Virus record (IMG/VR): IMGVR_UViG_3300018486_000146
Length of the DNA: 7,203 nucleotides
DNA from: a virus
Taxonomy: Duplodnaviria; Heunggongvirae; Uroviricota; Caudoviricetes
Reading direction: 5' to 3' (one strand)
Shown here: piece after piece, positions 1,171-7,203 of the stretch
How positions within the stretch are numbered: the stretch's first letter is position 1
Layout: each line of letters begins with the position of its first letter
The notes under the pieces: generated by a model
What the model saw: only the letters and a program-made list of their open reading frames with translations
Databases searched by the model: none
What the model was told of the DNA's origin: nothing
Position numbers and translations under genes: made by a program

Positions 1171-1227
1171 CGGTTGTATTCCTTTTTTCATATCGGGGAG
1201 CACGCTGTTGCGAGTGCGCTTTCAGAC

Positions 1228-1255
1228 ATAAAAAAGCCCGTCACGTGAGGCGGGC
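1228..1255 (-). terminator. Intrinsic terminator on the minus strand, in a tL1-like position
   Basis: On the minus strand the sequence reads GCCCG-CC-TCACGTGA-CGGGC followed by TTTTTTAT: a GC-rich stem then a U6 tract. On the plus strand the A-run precedes the hairpin, so it is unidirectional. It sits between the Cys-rich ORF and the downstream early-left genes. Confidence 0.55.
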
Positions 1256-1286
1256 AAAGACTACACACAGCAATTACATGGATGAT

Positions 1287-1481
1287 TCAGTTGGTATTGT
1301 GCGTACGTGGTACCACAAGGTTGAAGCGGACACGCCAGTGCGTTGCAATGGTATGCAGGAAAGCACCACATCCAGGGCAGTGCTCATAACATTCGTTGAT
1401 TTGGTATCGTTTTGGCTTTGGTGTCAGAAGCTGTGTTTGGCAAGCAGGGCATTCACCTTTGAGCGGTTTATACGTTTTCAC
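1287..1481 (-). CDS. Small Cys-rich protein, 64 aa, putative zinc ribbon (CPAC ... CYEHCPGC)
   Basis: GTG start at 1481 preceded by GAGGA with a 6-nt spacer. Five cysteines in a CxxC...CxxxCxxC arrangement. It is the first ORF downstream of the putative pL and is followed about 30 nt later by the terminator. Only 64 aa with a GTG start, so moderate confidence. Confidence 0.45.
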   Translation of the reverse strand: MKTYKPLKGECPACQTQLLTPKPKRYQINECYEHCPGCGAFLHTIATHWRVRFNLVVPRTHNTN

Positions 1482-1803: not shown

Positions 1804-2427
1804 CTAACGTTTACGGCGGTAAATACGGTGTTCGATCATTACACCTATGATCTGTAAGTTCATATCTGCACTACGAAAAATAGGGTAATCAGGATTTAGG
1901 GGGATTAATTCAAAGTCGTCGATGCCGATTCCTAATGGACGGTATTTTTTAAATGTAGCTTCGTGGCCGTCGTTTTTGGCGACAACAAACTCCCCTGGTG
2001 CAGGACATAGATCAGGATCGATGATAACAATGTCTCCTTCTTTAAACTCTGGTTGCATGCTGTCGCCATCGATACGTAATGCGAAGCATGTTTCTGGAAT
2101 GTCAGAGTCTGCCAAAATATATTCAAATTCCCCTGTCAGATCTGTTATGTCTCTTGCTTCTGTAAGCTCTCCTGCCTGAACGTAACTTAATATAGGTATG
2201 CGTCTGGTACTTATCTCCGCGAGAGGCATAATATTTTTACCGTTCAGTAGCCAGTCTGGGCTACATTTCAAGGCCTTAGCCAGATCCAGAAGATTGCGTG
2301 GCTTTCTGGTTCGTCCACTTTCGATGGATTCTATGGATTGTTGGCTAACCCCTGCAGAATTCGCTACTTCCACTTGAGTCATTCCTAATTCCAAACGACG
2401 TGCTTTAAAACGGGCTGCGAGAGACAT
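1804..2427 (-). CDS. cI: cI-type prophage repressor: N-terminal XRE/434-like HTH plus C-terminal LexA-like S24 autopeptidase domain
   Basis: The HTH region (MTQVEVANSAGVSQQSIESIESGRTRKPRNLLDLAKALKCSPDWLLNGK) aligns with the phage 434 repressor DNA-binding domain as recalled. The C-terminal domain carries an Ala-Gly cleavage site (VQAGEL), a GDSM serine motif and a downstream lysine (FKKY), typical of RecA-stimulated autocleavage. Start set at ATG 2427 (AAGGA 8 nt upstream), not the ORF-track start at 2478, which falls inside the operator region. Confidence 0.93.
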   Translation of the reverse strand: MSLAARFKARRLELGMTQVEVANSAGVSQQSIESIESGRTRKPRNLLDLAKALKCSPDWLLNGKNIMPLAEISTRRIPILSYVQAGELTEARDITDLTGEFEYILADSDIPETCFALRIDGDSMQPEFKEGDIVIIDPDLCPAPGEFVVAKNDGHEATFKKYRPLGIGIDDFELIPLNPDYPIFRSADMNLQIIGVMIEHRIYRRKR

Positions 2428-2450
2428 GGGATTAGTCCTTCTGGGTTGTA

Positions 2451-2472
2451 TTAATGTGTATCCCCACATTAA
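2451..2472. promoter_or_regulatory. 22-bp inverted repeat TTAATGTG-N6-CACATTAA in the cI-proximal part of the switch; unassigned protein-binding site
   Basis: Perfect 8-bp arms with a 6-bp spacer, 25-45 bp upstream of the cI start codon. It differs from the ACAA-N6-TTGT operators. A related AATGTGG / CCACAAATGTGG motif occurs at 1678-1689 near the left operator. Confidence 0.4.
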
Positions 2473-2474
2473 AA

Positions 2475-2488
2475 ACAATTTTTGTTGT
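2475..2488. promoter_or_regulatory. Right operator site OR-A (ACAATTTTTGTTGT), 434-type
   Basis: Exact ACAA-N6-TTGT match, immediately upstream of the -35 TTGACA of the rightward promoter. Confidence 0.5.
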
Positions 2489-2766: not shown

Positions 2767-4959
2767 ATGTCCGATAGCAAACCATGGGGAGCTACGCCTG
2801 ATGAGTGGTTTCATTTCGACCTGGTATTGGGGAGAACTGATCATCTTCTCCCAGTTGTATGTAACCCCAGTGCGACCATATCCCCTGATAGTAAACTGAA
2901 AGCGTTGGGTAAGACGCCGAGTCGCTATAACCGGGACCGCCAGGTCACCGGTATTGCTCAATGGACCGGGCATGTTGTTACTGAGCATGATTTTGCCCGC
3001 TGGTCGAATGAACCGGATTATGGCATCTGCGTGCGTACAGGCCATGGCTGGCTGGCGCTGGACTGTGATAGCGAAGATGAAGACATTCATGCAGATATTC
3101 GCAAAACGCTTGTGCAACTTCTGGGTGAGTTGCCGCCGCGACGCTGGCGAGCAAACAGTAATAAGTGTCTGTATCTGCTGGCCGTTGATGGTGATTTCCG
3201 TAAGCGTATCCATCGCCTGGCGGGGGATATGGGCATTATCGAGTTGCTGGCGAACGGGCAGCAGTTCGTTGCCTGCGGTACGCACAGCAGCGGCGCGCGT
3301 ATTGAATGGGACGGCGGTTTGCCGGATGAACCTCCGGCTATTACTGGTGAGCAGCTTGAAACGCTGTGGCAGCGCCTGGCTGAACAACTCCCTGTGTCGG
3401 TAACCACCGAAGCGGGCAACACGAAGATGCGCGACCGATCAGCATTCACGCCCGGCGCGACGGATGATACAGCTGAATATCTTGATGCCAATGGCTGGAC
3501 GCTGCTGGATGGCGCAAATGGTGAACGATATATCCGCTGTCCGTTTGAAGACGGCCACAGTAGCGGGGGCGATCCAACAAGCACAGTTTATTTTCCTGCG
3601 GGAACCGCGGGCTTTGAGCAGGGGCATTTTAAATGCCTGCATGCCAGTTGTGCGCATCGTGATGACGGAGATTTCCTTAATGCCATCGGGATCCGCAACG
3701 ACGATTTCGAAGATCTGACCAGCACCGAAGTGGCGGAACCTTTACCGCTGCCTGCTTTCGAGCGTGATAAATGGGGGCGTATCGAGGCAACAATCAGCAA
3801 CGCAGCCAAAGCAGTAGTACGCCCTGATTTTGTGGACATCGATATTCGCTTTGACCAGTTCCGCGACGAAATCATGTTTGCCCCTGCAGGATCCGGACAA
3901 TGGCGGGCATTCACCGATGCGGATTATGCGCGCCTGCGCATCACGATGGAAAAGCGGGGATTTAAACCTGTTGGTCGTGAACTTATTCGCGATGTGGTGT
4001 TACTTGCAGCCGATGAACAACCATTCGATTCAGCGATCACCTGGCTGAACGGACTGGAGTGGGATGGCGTGCCGCGCATCGAATGTTTCTACCATACGCA
4101 CTTCGGTACAGCCGACACGCCTTATACCCGTGCGGTGTCTATGTACATGTGGACCGCGTTGGCGGGGCGAGTACTGGAGCCAGGCATCAAAGCGGATATG
4201 GTGCCGATCCTCGTTGGTCCGCAGGGCTGCGGTAAGTCTTCCGGAGTGGAGGCACTGAGCCCTGATCCTGCGTTTTTTACTGAAATCTCTTTTGCCGAAA
4301 AAGACGATGATCTCGCTCGAAAAATGCGTGGTCGGCTGGTGGCAGAGATTGGTGAACTGCGCGGACTTAATACCAAAGAGCTGGAGTCAATCAAAGCGTT
4401 TGTGACGCGTACTCACGAAAACTGGATCCCGAAATACCGGGAGTTCGCCACCCAGTTTCCTCGTCGCCTGGTGTTCGTTGGTACCACCAATGAGGACGAA
4501 TTCCTTGCGGACAAGACTGGTAACCGTCGCTGGCTCCCCGTGGAAGTGTCGAAAGTCGACGTGAAAGCGATAAAAAGAGATCTCCTTTTACTTTGGGCTG
4601 AGGCTCGTGAGGTGTTTCAGCGTCTGGGGGGTATCCAGTTCCGTGAGGCTGAACAACTGGCAGCGAGTGTCCATGAACAGTACACCATCAAGGATGCTTG
4701 GCTTGAAACGGTAGAGAAATGGCTCGACACGCCAGACCTGATGACTAATGAACTTCCGCGAAATTGCGAATTTTTACGCGCAAGTGATGTTTTGCGTGAT
4801 GCGATTGGGCTAAATCCTGACCGCATCGGAAAACGCGAAGAAATGCGAATTAGTAATGTTTTGCAAAATTGCGGGTATAAGCGTGCCCAAAGGCGAATTG
4901 GGGGGAAAATGACTCGAATTTTTGAGGCGGTGTCCCAACCTGTACCAACCTCAAAATAG
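2767..4959 (+). CDS. Replication initiator: primase-polymerase N-terminal domain, zinc-binding Cys/His cluster, and C-terminal P-loop SF3/D5/VirE-like helicase domain (730 aa)
   Basis: N-terminal DxD motif (LALDCDSEDED) and GTHSSG, consistent with prim-pol. Cys/His cluster CPFEDGH...HFKCLHASCAH. Walker A GPQGCGKSS and an SF3-like motif C (VFVGTTNE). Starts 6 bp after the cro stop. Iterons lie at and after its 3' end. Confidence 0.92.
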   Translation: MSDSKPWGATPDEWFHFDLVLGRTDHLLPVVCNPSATISPDSKLKALGKTPSRYNRDRQVTGIAQWTGHVVTEHDFARWSNEPDYGICVRTGHGWLALDCDSEDEDIHADIRKTLVQLLGELPPRRWRANSNKCLYLLAVDGDFRKRIHRLAGDMGIIELLANGQQFVACGTHSSGARIEWDGGLPDEPPAITGEQLETLWQRLAEQLPVSVTTEAGNTKMRDRSAFTPGATDDTAEYLDANGWTLLDGANGERYIRCPFEDGHSSGGDPTSTVYFPAGTAGFEQGHFKCLHASCAHRDDGDFLNAIGIRNDDFEDLTSTEVAEPLPLPAFERDKWGRIEATISNAAKAVVRPDFVDIDIRFDQFRDEIMFAPAGSGQWRAFTDADYARLRITMEKRGFKPVGRELIRDVVLLAADEQPFDSAITWLNGLEWDGVPRIECFYHTHFGTADTPYTRAVSMYMWTALAGRVLEPGIKADMVPILVGPQGCGKSSGVEALSPDPAFFTEISFAEKDDDLARKMRGRLVAEIGELRGLNTKELESIKAFVTRTHENWIPKYREFATQFPRRLVFVGTTNEDEFLADKTGNRRWLPVEVSKVDVKAIKRDLLLLWAEAREVFQRLGGIQFREAEQLAASVHEQYTIKDAWLETVEKWLDTPDLMTNELPRNCEFLRASDVLRDAIGLNPDRIGKREEMRISNVLQNCGYKRAQRRIGGKMTRIFEAVSQPVPTSK

Positions 4960-5112
4960 ATGTTGGTACATTTTAACTAATTGAATTTAAAGGCCGGTAC
5001 CAACTGTACCATCTGTACCAACCTAATTACTAAGAACCCCATATATATATATAAGTCGCTTGGGGAAAAGGTTTGAAAAGAGCTGGTACAGGTGGGTACA
5101 GGTTGGTACAGG
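4931..5112. repeat. Iteron array flanking an (AT)n tract: putative phage origin of replication
   Basis: Core TGTACCA(ACC) in direct orientation at 4931-4950 (two tandem 10-mers inside the primase 3' end), 4996-5004, 5005-5013 and 5014-5023. ATATATATATATA at 5041-5053. Inverted copies (C/T)(T/G)GGTACAGG at 5083-5092, 5093-5102 and 5103-5112 with exact 10-bp periodicity, plus one inverted copy at 4961-4970. Confidence 0.65.
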
Positions 5113-5167
5113 CCGAACAAGGAATTTTTTGCGCATAACAGCGTGTAATAAGCGAATCGGAACTGCG

Positions 5168-5176
5168 TTATCCACA
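5168..5176 (+). promoter_or_regulatory. Consensus DnaA box TTATCCACA next to the iteron origin
   Basis: Exact 9/9 match to TTATCCACA, about 55 bp downstream of the last iteron. An inverted GGATAA follows 8 bp later. A single 9-mer can occur by chance (roughly 5% expectation in this window), so the location is what gives it weight. Confidence 0.45.
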
Positions 5177-5240
5177 CCCACGGATAAACAAACGTGGTTC
5201 TCAGAAAATTTTTTCGTAGCAAAACGTAGAGGTCAGAGCT

Positions 5241-5663
5241 ATGCGTAATATTCAACAGGTTTTAGAGCGCTGGGGTGGCTGGGCAGCGAGTGAAGGTGGT
5301 AGCGTCTACTTTCCTCCTGTTGCAGCCGGGTTTAAGAATCTGCTACCCGCGACGCAGTCTGGAAGGCTGAAATGCAGTGACAATGACGGACTTATCATCA
5401 ACTCCGCTATGAGCTGCCTGAAGAAAAAAGATCCGTATCTGTGCACGCTCCTTGAGTGGCATTACGTCCAGGCCATGCCCGTGCGGGCGATGGGTGAGAA
5501 GCTCGGCGTATCTCACACCCACGTTCTGAAGAGGCTTCAGGCGGCAGAGGGATTTATTGACGGTTGCTTAGCCATGCTGGATGTGGTGCTCGAAATGGAT
5601 CAGTCGGTTCAGTCAAAGCCTCAGGCTATCAGGACTTTGCGTAGGAGCTGCTCGGCGGCATAA
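5241..5663 (+). CDS. Q: Late-gene antiterminator Q, phage 82 / QuuD family (140 aa)
   Basis: ATG 5241 with TAGAGG upstream. Motifs LERWGGWAA, AAGFKNL and KRLQAAEGFIDGCLAMLDVVLEMD align with the E. coli DLP12 QuuD antiterminator as recalled (LERWGAWAA, AAGFKGL, KRLQKAEGIIEGMLMALDIRLEMD). Confidence 0.82.
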   Translation: MRNIQQVLERWGGWAASEGGSVYFPPVAAGFKNLLPATQSGRLKCSDNDGLIINSAMSCLKKKDPYLCTLLEWHYVQAMPVRAMGEKLGVSHTHVLKRLQAAEGFIDGCLAMLDVVLEMDQSVQSKPQAIRTLRRSCSAA

Positions 5664-5664
5664 T
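5637..5664 (+). promoter_or_regulatory. Candidate late promoter pR' at the 3' end of Q (-35 TTGCGT, 16-bp spacer, -10 CATAAT); tentative
   Basis: This is the position where lambdoid pR' promoters sit, immediately after Q. The hexamers are only moderate matches and no Q-utilisation or pause element could be verified by eye. An alternative location is the AT-rich 6128-6357 region. Confidence 0.25.
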
Positions 5665-5694
5665 ATCCAGCAATCAATCACGTAAGGGAACCAG

Positions 5695-6036
5695 ATGGCT
5701 CTGATCAGCGTTCGCAACAGATTTGAAAGCTTCATGGAACAGAGGTACCCAGACCTGTCGTTGCAGGTCAAAGGTAATATTAGCGCATCAATGAAGGCTC
5801 AACTTGGCATCAGGATTGAACGAGAATTGTACAGTGAAGATGTTACTTACTGTGATTCAGCAGTTCAGTTGATGTGGACACTCTTTCAGGCAGGTGTTCT
5901 GGCCGAACGAAGAGCTACCAGCGTTACGCTTCCTGCGCTGAAGGCAAAGCCGGATAGCTTCTACGATGCGGGTTATAACGAAGGTATTCAGGACTGTCGT
6001 AAACATCTGACGGCATCAGGCATCAAGGTAAGATAA
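5695..6036 (+). CDS. Hypothetical protein, 113 aa, in the Q-to-lysis (stx-equivalent) cargo slot; function unknown
   Basis: ATG 5695 with AAGGGAA upstream. The protein is not low-complexity and no transmembrane segment or signal peptide is obvious. An intrinsic terminator follows about 70 bp downstream. No family recognised. Confidence 0.6.
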   Translation: MALISVRNRFESFMEQRYPDLSLQVKGNISASMKAQLGIRIERELYSEDVTYCDSAVQLMWTLFQAGVLAERRATSVTLPALKAKPDSFYDAGYNEGIQDCRKHLTASGIKVR

Positions 6037-6103
6037 AAAATAGTTGTGGAATTCCAAAAAGCCGATTAGCCTGATATCCGTTGAAAACAGTTCATCACGA
6101 AGA

Positions 6104-6127
6104 GGCTTCCGCAAGGGGGCCTTTTTT
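6104..6127 (+). terminator. Intrinsic terminator downstream of the 113-aa ORF
   Basis: GGCTTCC-GCAA-GGGGGCC forms a 7-bp stem (5 Watson-Crick and 2 G-U pairs) with a GNRA tetraloop, followed by TTTTTT. Confidence 0.6.
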
Positions 6128-6357
6128 ATTGCCCCATTCTGGGGAAAAGTTAATAAAACAGGGCTTTCGCTGCGAAAAAACGCTATGCAGTTTTTGCCCT
6201 TTTTTATGCACCTTTTATTCACTCGAATTTCGTCATTCTGGACCACTTAAGTTGATTAAATAGTCCTTTCATCGCAAATCTATTGCGAGCGGGGATCGTG
6301 TGGTTCCTATAACGTACATTATGTTAAATAACTTCCTTTTTTAACAAATTTAACAAG

Positions 6358-6380
6358 GTTCGCTATGGCGAACTTTTTTT
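6358..6380 (+). terminator. Strong intrinsic terminator upstream of the lysis genes, a tR'-like candidate
   Basis: GTTCGC-tatg-GCGAAC is a perfect 6-bp stem with a 4-nt loop, followed by seven T. It lies about 100 bp upstream of the holin start. Confidence 0.7.
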
Positions 6381-6481
6381 GTATTCAGGGCCCACCGAAG
6401 GACGGCTCATAACCCAATCCTACGGGCGTATACGCAGGGCCCGCCTTTCAACAACACCCCGTAATGGCGGAGGTGGGAAGT

Positions 6482-6823
6482 ATGAAAATGCACAATGCTC
6501 CTCATTCCTGGCCTGACTTACTGGAACTCTTACAAAGTTGGTGGCGTGGAGATACGCCGTTGGGCGCAGTGGTTATGTCAATTGTTATGGCTGGCTTGCG
6601 CATTGCCTATTTTGGCGGTGGCGGCGGCTGGAAACGAAAAACGCTTGAGATTTTGCTCTGTGGTGCTCTGACGCTGACTTTTGCATCCGCTCTTGAGTAT
6701 GTCGGATGGCCTAAATCGCTTTCTGTTGCCATTGGTGGTGGTGTTGGGCTGATCGGTGTCGATGCTATTCGTGGGGCTGCAATGCGAGTAATCGGTAACA
6801 AATTTGGTGGCTCTAAGGAGTAA
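6482..6823 (+). CDS. Holin, 113 aa, three predicted transmembrane segments, with a Met-Lys-Met dual-start motif (possible holin/antiholin pair)
   Basis: GGAGGTGGG at 6469-6477 precedes ATG 6482, AAA, ATG 6488. Hydrophobic segments LGAVVMSIVMAGLRIAYF, LEILLCGALTLTFASALEYV and SLSVAIGGGVGLIGVDAI. The stop lies 3 nt before the endolysin start. The ORF-track start at 6464 falls inside the Shine-Dalgarno and was rejected. Not similar to lambda S by eye. Confidence 0.8.
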   Translation: MKMHNAPHSWPDLLELLQSWWRGDTPLGAVVMSIVMAGLRIAYFGGGGGWKRKTLEILLCGALTLTFASALEYVGWPKSLSVAIGGGVGLIGVDAIRGAAMRVIGNKFGGSKE

Positions 6824-6826
6824 TTT

Positions 6827-7203
6827 ATGCAGGTACTAAATTCCCAGCGTAAAGCTTTCCTGGATATGGTGGCATGGTCAGAAGGAACGGATAACGGGCG
6901 ACAACCGACACGTAACCACGGTTATGACGTTATTGTTGGTGGTGAACTGTTTACTGATTACTCCGATCATCCTCACAAACTTGTCACGCTAAACCCGAAA
7001 CTTAAATCAACAGCTGCCGGACGTTATCAGCTTCTTTCCCGTTGGTGGGATGCTTACCGTAAACAGCTTGGTTTGAAAGACTTCTCCCCCAAAAGCCAGG
7101 ACGCTGTGGCATTGCAGCAGATTAAAGAGCGTGGCGCTTTACCGATGATTGATCGCGGTGATATTCGTCAGGCTATCGACCGTTGCAGCAATATCTGGGC
7201 TTC
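6827..7203 (+). CDS. R: Endolysin, lambda R-type lytic transglycosylase, 5' portion (truncated by window end)
   Basis: AAGGAG 6 nt upstream of ATG 6827. The translation MQVLNSQRKAFLDMVAWSEGTDNGRQPTRNHGYDVIVGGELFTDYSDHP...RCSNIWA is nearly identical to lambda R as recalled, including the catalytic-glutamate motif AWSEGTD. The open frame runs to the window end. Confidence 0.95.
   Translation, partial: MQVLNSQRKAFLDMVAWSEGTDNGRQPTRNHGYDVIVGGELFTDYSDHPHKLVTLNPKLKSTAAGRYQLLSRWWDAYRKQLGLKDFSPKSQDAVALQQIKERGALPMIDRGDIRQAIDRCSNIWA

Follow-up and report, generated by a model that had tools for sequence, protein, structure and literature searches.

What is the small gene that sits between the antiterminator gene Q and the holin of a prophage of Escherichia coli, and at which stage of the phage cycle is it expressed? 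The gene, referred to hereafter as ORF113, is an open reading frame of 113 codons in a 7,203-nt stretch of DNA (IMG/VR record IMGVR_UViG_3300018486_000146, Caudoviricetes; the window), which covers the central control region of an E. coli prophage whose regulation is lambdoid and whose late region is of the myovirus type. An earlier note on this DNA had placed ORF113 in the cargo slot between Q and the lysis genes. We conclude that it is probably an optional gene inserted where Q and the late promoter PR′ meet, and not cargo between PR′ and the lysis genes. Judging from its sequence and gene order, ORF113 is likely to be a true accessory gene that the phage can do without, located furthest from the promoter in the early-right operon (cro, primase/helicase, Q, ORF113). 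The relevant part of the window is organized as follows (dN/dS is the ratio of non-synonymous to synonymous substitution rates):

5241-5663, + strand: Q antiterminator, 140 amino acids, of the PF06530 type (Pfam PF06530 at 5e-42)
5637-5664, + strand: promoter-like element TTGCGT-N16-CATAAT, inside the 3′ end of the Q coding sequence
5684-5689, + strand: AAGGGA, Shine-Dalgarno sequence of ORF113, read from the sequence
5695-6036, + strand: ORF113, PF26207 / PHROG 343, dN/dS 0.068, adjoining Q in homologous loci
6044-6072, + strand: predicted PR′, with -35 TTGTGG (6044-6049), a 17-nt spacer and -10 TAGCCT (6067-6072); predicted start at ~6079
6047-6056, + strand: palindrome TGGAATTCCA in the invariant block TTGTGGAATTCCAAA, the candidate Q-binding element in the -35/spacer half of PR′
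6099-6127, + strand: t1, first leader terminator (stem 6099-6121, GCAA loop, T6 at 6122-6127)
6128-6354, + strand: conserved leader of ~230 nt between t1 and t2, in the position of the 258-nt StxS precursor of Stx phages
6355-6383, + strand: t2, equivalent of tR′ (stem 6355-6376, T-run to 6383)
6464-6823, + strand: holin of the lambda S family (Pfam PF05106 at 1.2e-27)

ORF113 is a real gene under strong purifying selection. It starts with ATG and is annotated at the same coordinates in RefSeq (WP_001174015.1). Compared with its 85% identical counterpart in L013 (loci and proteins are cited here by L and P numbers), it shows 45.5 synonymous and 21.5 non-synonymous differences, and the resulting dN/dS is on par with that of Q in the same comparison (0.065). 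Full-length homologues with 42–49% identity are present in prophage loci of Rahnella (L007) and Yersinia (L009) and in contigs L008 and L033; the aligned homologues together span 42–85% identity, with conserved motifs lasting down to 20–30%. The description of ORF113 in the earlier note as a well-formed gene with its own ribosome-binding site is therefore borne out by AAGGGA, dN/dS and the RefSeq entry, and the codon-level conservation whose absence it took as a refutation is present.

The protein belongs to a family, contrary to what had been stated before. ORF113 matches PHROG 343 over residues 5-112 (E = 2.8e-18), precomputed annotation assigns PF26207.1 (Phage_phiTE_015) to its cluster and to homologues, with the Q-linked ones labeled as ‘weak’, and the RefSeq name of WP_001174015.1 is ‘phiTE_015 family protein’. 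Conversely, a profile of the ORF113 subfamily that included distant members retrieved PF26207 proteins outside the ‘weak’ group (P0040 at 1.5e-9, P0055 at 8.6e-6, and others). ORF113 and PF26207 have in common an N-terminal R-x-x-F-E motif, a central W, an L-P pair after the central helix and a C-terminal motif Y-D-x-G-Y-N-E...C...A-G-(V/I)-K-V; the residues conserved in the alignment are F10, E11, Y52, W61, L79, P80 and the C-terminal GYNE...AGVKV block. By these sequence matches, ORF113 is a divergent member of PF26207 / PHROG 343, a set of small proteins that phages encode in early or nin regions and whose function is unknown. Its close subfamily is small, as an exhaustive profile search yielded just 16 representative clusters. 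Partial matches to phrog_37465 and phrog_15831 were also seen; the ‘head closure’ label of the latter was rejected as unsupported by the gene context.

Core members of PF26207 sit among early or nin genes. In ST64T, orf-86 lies between gene 12 and ninB, and HK022 has an unannotated match between the gene for a DnaB-like helicase and Q; further core members occur in Pseudomonas phages D3 (orf41) and PMG1, in Pakpunavirus-like phages and in metagenomic loci L058 and L059. Other searches returned nothing. When ORF113 and three homologues were scanned against local Pfam (a version lacking the PF26207 model), NCBIfam and PADLOC, no match appeared even at E <= 10; PADLOC-DB defense models gave none for ORF113 at E <= 0.1, and a PDB sequence search with the family profile gave none either. 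We found no paper on phiTE_015 or PF26207, and the papers on phage phiTE are silent on gene 015. An AlphaFold model built on a 47-sequence alignment is compact, with three helices and two short strands (predicted local distance difference test score, pLDDT, 78.5; predicted template modeling score, pTM, 0.61), and its variable loop, residues 29-46, is disordered. The sequence shows no sign of a catalytic motif, a secretion signal or a membrane segment, and as modeled ORF113 is a small soluble module. Tentatively, and with low confidence, we suggest that it binds a host or phage protein near the early-to-late transition, in host takeover or counter-defense.

We then come to the location of the late promoter. 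Directly 3′ of ORF113 there is an invariant non-coding block, GTTGTGGAATTCCAAA-N8-TAnnCTGnTA, which is present at the corresponding position past the homologues in L007, L008 and L009, with a hairpin and a T-run some 30–50 nt beyond it. Public collections were scanned for this pattern of 23 specified bases; it occurs in 40 viral contigs and in 7 bacterial genomes (47 loci). At every locus with sufficient upstream sequence, the pattern lies 3′ of a Q that is 59–100% identical to that of the window. Three layouts were seen. In ~17 loci Q is directly followed by the motif, 0–46 nt past the aligned end of Q; in loci of the L012/L014 type the motif lies inside the end of the Q reading frame. In the window, as well as in L007, L008, L009, L013, L015, L032 and L033, an ORF113 homologue stands between the two and the motif follows 9–10 nt after its stop. 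The third layout has ~930 nt between Q and the motif (L052–L054, with gene content read in L052, and L053 and L054 known by spacing alone). In L052, from Symbiopectobacterium, a gene for a predicted lipoprotein of 147 amino acids with lipobox LSGC (6569-7012) occupies this interval. As it does so in place of an ORF113 homologue, we regard the Q-PR′ gap as a variable accessory slot.

In the Stx phages of strain Sakai, differential RNA-seq and Term-seq put the PR′ start 258 nt upstream of the 3′ end of tR′ (PMC7547250). The start maps to A592 in VT2-Sakai, 7 nt past TATCAT, and the -35 is TTTACG. From -10 to +18 the motif-bearing loci are near-identical to VT2-Sakai (L011, TAGCCTGTTAAGAGTGGTTACTTTGCCACG; Sakai, TATCATGATAAGAGTGGTTACATTGCCACG), and an A-rich run upstream of the -35 is common to both, whereas the -35/spacer half differs. 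This divergence is to be expected: in characterized systems the Q-binding element lies in the -35/spacer region, between -35 and -10, and the two Q proteins diverge, with the Q of the window being 42–46% identical to the Q of Stx phages such as VT2-Sakai (144 amino acids) and to that of APSE phages. The palindrome TGGAATTCCA in this half is a perfect one of 10 bp, includes an EcoRI site and is invariant in 47/47 scanned loci; it is a likely candidate for the Q-binding element of this Q subclade. In this it would differ from Q21, which binds direct repeats and whose solved structure the Q of the window matches weakly (E = 0.13).

Because the motif is linked to Q and homologous to the Sakai PR′, we place the predicted PR′ at 6044-6072, with a start at ~6079. 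By homology, then, PR′ is directly 3′ of ORF113 (6044-6079) rather than in the last part of Q. Several features expected of a Q-dependent late promoter unit are present, namely strict linkage to a single Q subtype, consensus -35/-10 spacing and a leader terminator. Prophages with other Q alleles (IAI1, RMDEC465, Sx181) rejoin the window sequence at ~6100-6117, i.e. at t1, where a module of Q and its promoter would be expected to end. Two other placements were considered. A promoter within the conserved 6128-6354 was favored at first, given where other Q alleles rejoin, and was dropped in view of the Q-linked motif and the Sakai homology. We also rejected a different -10, TGnTA... at 6072-6080 paired with the -35 TTCCAA, as its last position is unconserved and the Sakai start fits TAnnCT.

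Both terminators recognized in the earlier note, a GNRA-capped one at 6104-6127 and a second at 6358-6380, were confirmed by folding, with slightly wider limits. t1 (-17.1 kcal/mol, z = -4.9 against shuffles) was missed by a pattern scan and would occupy ~+21 to +49 of the predicted PR′ transcript; most relatives, and VT2-Sakai as well, have a hairpin and T-run here with a different stem sequence. t2 (-10.4 kcal/mol, z = -3.65) would end at ~+305. The leader between them is ~94% identical in prophages with other Q alleles, and its invariant blocks, e.g. AAAAGTTAATAAAACAGGG and GTAACGTACATTATGTTAAAT, are kept even in the 78% identical Sx181 locus. An Rfam search of 6128-6354 gave no known RNA family, and this interval has no convincing protein-coding gene, being overlapped only by short mechanical open reading frames with TTG or GTG starts; a hydrophobic frame of ~21 codons starts at 6186. 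The segment 6128-6383 may represent a small RNA derived from PR′. In the PR′ leader of VT2-Sakai, a hairpin with U7 (L065, 617-640; +26 to +49) long precedes the published tR′ at +258. Possibly a very short PR′ transcript escaped detection in Sakai, and the same may apply to the window.

Variable cargo is found only 3′ of t1: a tRNA-Gly gene in L008, a methyltransferase gene in L007, and genes for a lipase and a DUF6037 protein in L009. The tRNA-Gly gene (L008 5562-5637, anticodon TCC) stands just 3′ of the first leader terminator, like the tRNA genes of Stx phages. The true cargo slot begins after 6127, and in the phage of the window it holds no convincing protein-coding gene. Of the proposal that ORF113 occupies a cargo slot between Q and lysis, what remains is that the gene is accessory and variably present; its position is upstream of PR′.

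In the scheme that follows, the layout is observed, and from it we infer the steps of expression. Q and ORF113 are 31 nt apart in the window; for the homologues in L007 and L009 the distance is 15 nt, and the L008 homologue has a start codon that overlaps the stop of Q (TAATG). Neither a terminator nor a convincing promoter was found in the 31-nt gap. Lying upstream of PR′, 31 nt past Q and with no terminator between, ORF113 would be the last gene of the CI-repressed early operon, probably co-transcribed with Q after induction rather than in the dormant prophage; in a stable lysogen it should be silent. Upon induction CI would be cleaved, and transcription from pR would pass through Q and enter ORF113 31 nt further on. 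ORF113 would then be translated from its own Shine-Dalgarno sequence as a delayed-early product alongside Q. From PR′, directly past the ORF113 stop, a leader with the two terminators would be initiated at ~6079, and Q, bound to the invariant TTGTGGAATTCCAAA in the -35/spacer half, would allow RNA polymerase to read past both of them into the holin and other late genes.

Frameshifted and deleted alleles show ORF113 to be dispensable. An intact copy is present in ~63/147 related E. coli prophages; others have an internal deletion of 286 nt, a 1-nt frameshift, or a different Q allele without the frame. The 286-nt deletion removes window positions 5699-5984 and leaves a remnant of 9 codons; it was seen in the four vB_EcoM records (as an alignment for 611R5, L001), and ~30 E. 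coli genomes show coverage that matches it. In L021 and L049 the frameshift is due to a 1-nt deletion, and truncated variants are present in protein databases (P0021, P0022, P0025). Some ~17 loci with the same Q subclade and PR′ lack the gene. The comparison of related prophages put forward in the earlier note thus shows the slot intact, deleted, frameshifted or empty, and while alleles of the kind that it took as evidence against a gene do occur in close relatives, conservation at the codon level is strong.

Adjacency to Q is a constant of the enterobacterial subfamily: all members with a context that we read are found near Q and immediately next to the PR′ unit. The Q proteins of these phages are of three types, namely PF06530, PF03589 (lambda-type) and DUF1133 (PF06576, which also gives a weak Pfam PF06530 match). 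With PF06530-type Q, the homologue is 3′ of Q and before PR′. In phages of Xenorhabdus, Proteus and Providencia, with Q of the DUF1133 or PF03589 type, it comes immediately after a strong promoter, a short leader and a terminator, and is followed by a second terminator; examples of such promoters are TTGACT-N17-TAATAT (L062), TTGACT-N16-TATAGT (L070), TTGCAT-N17-TATCAT (L072) and TTGATT-N17-TATTAT (L067). One group from Providencia has a 110-amino-acid gene between Q and the homologue. As the homologue precedes the promoter-terminator unit in some phages and follows it in others, the timing of its expression would not be uniform across the subfamily. The constant adjacency may reflect selection for early-to-late expression or a functional link with the switch, and may equally reflect a mere hot spot of accessory genes at the Q/PR′ junction.

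The earlier note had offered a different account of ORF113 expression, in which PR′, or a moron-type promoter, lies at 5637-5664 and constitutive transcription of the gene, in lysogens too, runs as far as the terminator at 6104-6127, with a function in lysogenic conversion, exclusion or defense. A sequence TTGCGT-N16-CATAAT does exist there and is kept in L013, and ORF113 is variably present in the manner of a moron. Furthermore, the proposed layout does fit the relatives from Proteus, Providencia and Xenorhabdus with other Q types: these Morganellaceae homologues are bracketed by a promoter-terminator unit and a second terminator, and leaky expression in lysogens is plausible for them. However, the -35 hexamer at 5637-5664 matches at 3/6 positions, the element was not called by the promoter scan, and ~8 stricter matches are expected by chance in the window; it occurs in close E. 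coli-type relatives only and is absent from the four more distant loci L007, L008, L009 and L033. The Q-linked homologue of the Sakai PR′ lies 3′ of the reading frame, which takes away the ground for placing ORF113 between PR′ and the terminators and, with it, for transcription in a lysogen. The lack of any PADLOC match leaves the defense or exclusion role unsupported, and no signal peptide or membrane segment is evident. We consider this account unlikely. Equally to be weighed is the idea that the subfamily is a dedicated partner of the late switch, binding Q, RNA polymerase or NusA and tuning the timing or efficiency of antitermination. Such a role would explain why the gene is placed beside PR′ in three Q types and on either side of the promoter, and the overlap of homologue and Q in L008 is in line with it. 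Against this, ~17 loci have the same Q subclade and PR′ without the gene, deleted and frameshifted alleles occur, and core members of the family are found in virulent Pseudomonas phages and in L058 and L059, for which the stretch read has no called Q gene. Accessory genes are known to gather in the surroundings of Q, which makes adjacency by itself weak evidence, and we view a dedicated switch partner as improbable. Far less credible still is a decaying or chance open frame without function. Close relatives do have frameshift and deletion alleles, and the function is unknown, but 67 substitutions at a dN/dS of 0.068, full-length homologues that keep their motifs down to 42% identity and a confident fold from 47 sequences (pLDDT 78.5, pTM 0.61) all argue for a gene under constraint.

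Several observations weigh against ORF113 being a repressed early gene, as we propose. The PR′ assignment is one of homology and consensus alone. The initially transcribed region of the window (GATATCCGTTGAAAACAG...) is unlike the Sakai-like block, and no clear sigma-dependent pause element was found in it. The element at 5637-5664 is kept in L013 despite a diverged spacer, and as a weak internal promoter it may give ORF113 some independent or lysogenic expression. Finally, in phages with lambda-type or DUF1133-type Q the homologue is 3′ of the promoter-terminator unit.

Compared with known systems, the early-gene reading of ORF113 finds a close parallel in the PF26207/PHROG 343 core (ST64T orf-86, D3 orf41, Pakpunavirus). 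The core proteins are likewise of ~90–110 amino acids, with the order helix-helix-strand-helix-strand, the same motifs and the same early or nin-type setting. ORF113 and its enterobacterial relatives differ from them in being weak PF26207 matches, in having a longer variable loop (residues 18-54) and in always standing beside Q and PR′, which core members do not. The nin-region genes of lambda- and P22-like phages are similarly small, non-essential and part of the pR operon, before late transcription, but ORF113 comes after Q and not between the replication genes and Q. Lambdoid morons and conversion cargo (stx etc.) resemble it in being small, optional and patchy, near the Q-to-holin interval and with a terminator downstream; patchy presence among related prophages is indeed what we found. 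In contrast to them, ORF113 is upstream of PR′, lacks a convincing own promoter, is predicted to stay repressed in a lysogen and shows no toxin, defense or exclusion signature that we could find. Nor does it lie downstream of PR′ and tR′, as Stx-like cargo does. The PR′/StxS/tR′ unit of Stx phages (Sakai Sp5, Sp15; Sy et al. 2020, PMC7547250) has a homologous Q (42–46% identity), PR′ at the end of the preceding gene, cargo and tRNAs downstream, and a hairpin with a U-run at ~+26 to +49 followed by a second terminator (+258 in Sakai, ~+305 in the window), and its -10 to +18 block is near-identical in the motif-bearing relatives of the window. Unlike this unit, the window has a different upstream promoter half (TTGTGGAATTCCAAA, the putative Q-binding element), a leader unrelated in sequence to StxS and a protein gene between Q and PR′.

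The rest of the window includes:

122-1024, - strand: leftward gene for a 300-amino-acid protein, at the left end of the window
1804-2478, - strand: CI/LexA-like repressor
2530-2760: Cro
2767-4959: VapE primase/helicase

Holin is the first late gene; RefSeq places its start at 6482, with a dual-start MKM motif (RefSeq coordinates from L002). Near-identical DNA is present in 147/5,426 complete E. coli genomes, in every case on the chromosome, with carriers of the prophage family that include enterohemorrhagic, enteropathogenic and enterotoxigenic strains, and also in four phage records with vB_EcoM-... names, a group that one paper set against Salmonella phage SEN34. Between the primase/helicase gene and Q there is a 280-nt gap without a convincing gene (4960-5240), and relatives have differing small genes in this position (L001 5710-6000; L005 1585-2004). 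To the left of the 122-1024 gene, a leftward early operon read in L002 (1-3830) encodes Nmad5, DUF2815 and DUF2800 proteins; Nmad5 is putatively involved in nucleotide modification and its operon adjoins the VapE primase, and the operon could possibly be a DNA-modification or replication module.

A separate observation concerns an RprA-like small RNA at 1226-1335 (- strand), between the repressor gene and the leftward early genes. It matches Rfam RF00034 at 50.5 bits (E = 1.3e-5), which is under the gathering score of 70; the RprA consensus is reproduced exactly in its 3′ half (AAUUGCUGUGUGUAGUCUUUGCCCG and a terminator), while its 5′ half has diverged. The element has no RefSeq annotation and is found in ~180 E. 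coli records, with some partial copies on plasmids. It deserves attention because StxS, the PR′ leader of Stx phages, acts on rpoS via the seed region of RprA.

ORF113 is ordinary in kind, and the modest interest of the locus lies in the placement of PR′, the Q-PR′ insertion slot and the constant adjacency to Q. If this adjacency reflects function, for which the evidence is weak, the subfamily would point to a modulator, unknown so far, acting on a textbook example of a regulatory switch. In a widespread family of E. coli prophages, positions can now be given for the late promoter and the candidate Q-binding block TTGTGGAATTCCAAA, and the appropriate annotation for ORF113 is an early gene transcribed along with Q and not lysogen-expressed cargo. 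The Q-PR′ gap would then be a second, less appreciated insertion site for accessory genes in these phages, which can be empty or hold either a PF26207 gene or a lipoprotein gene.

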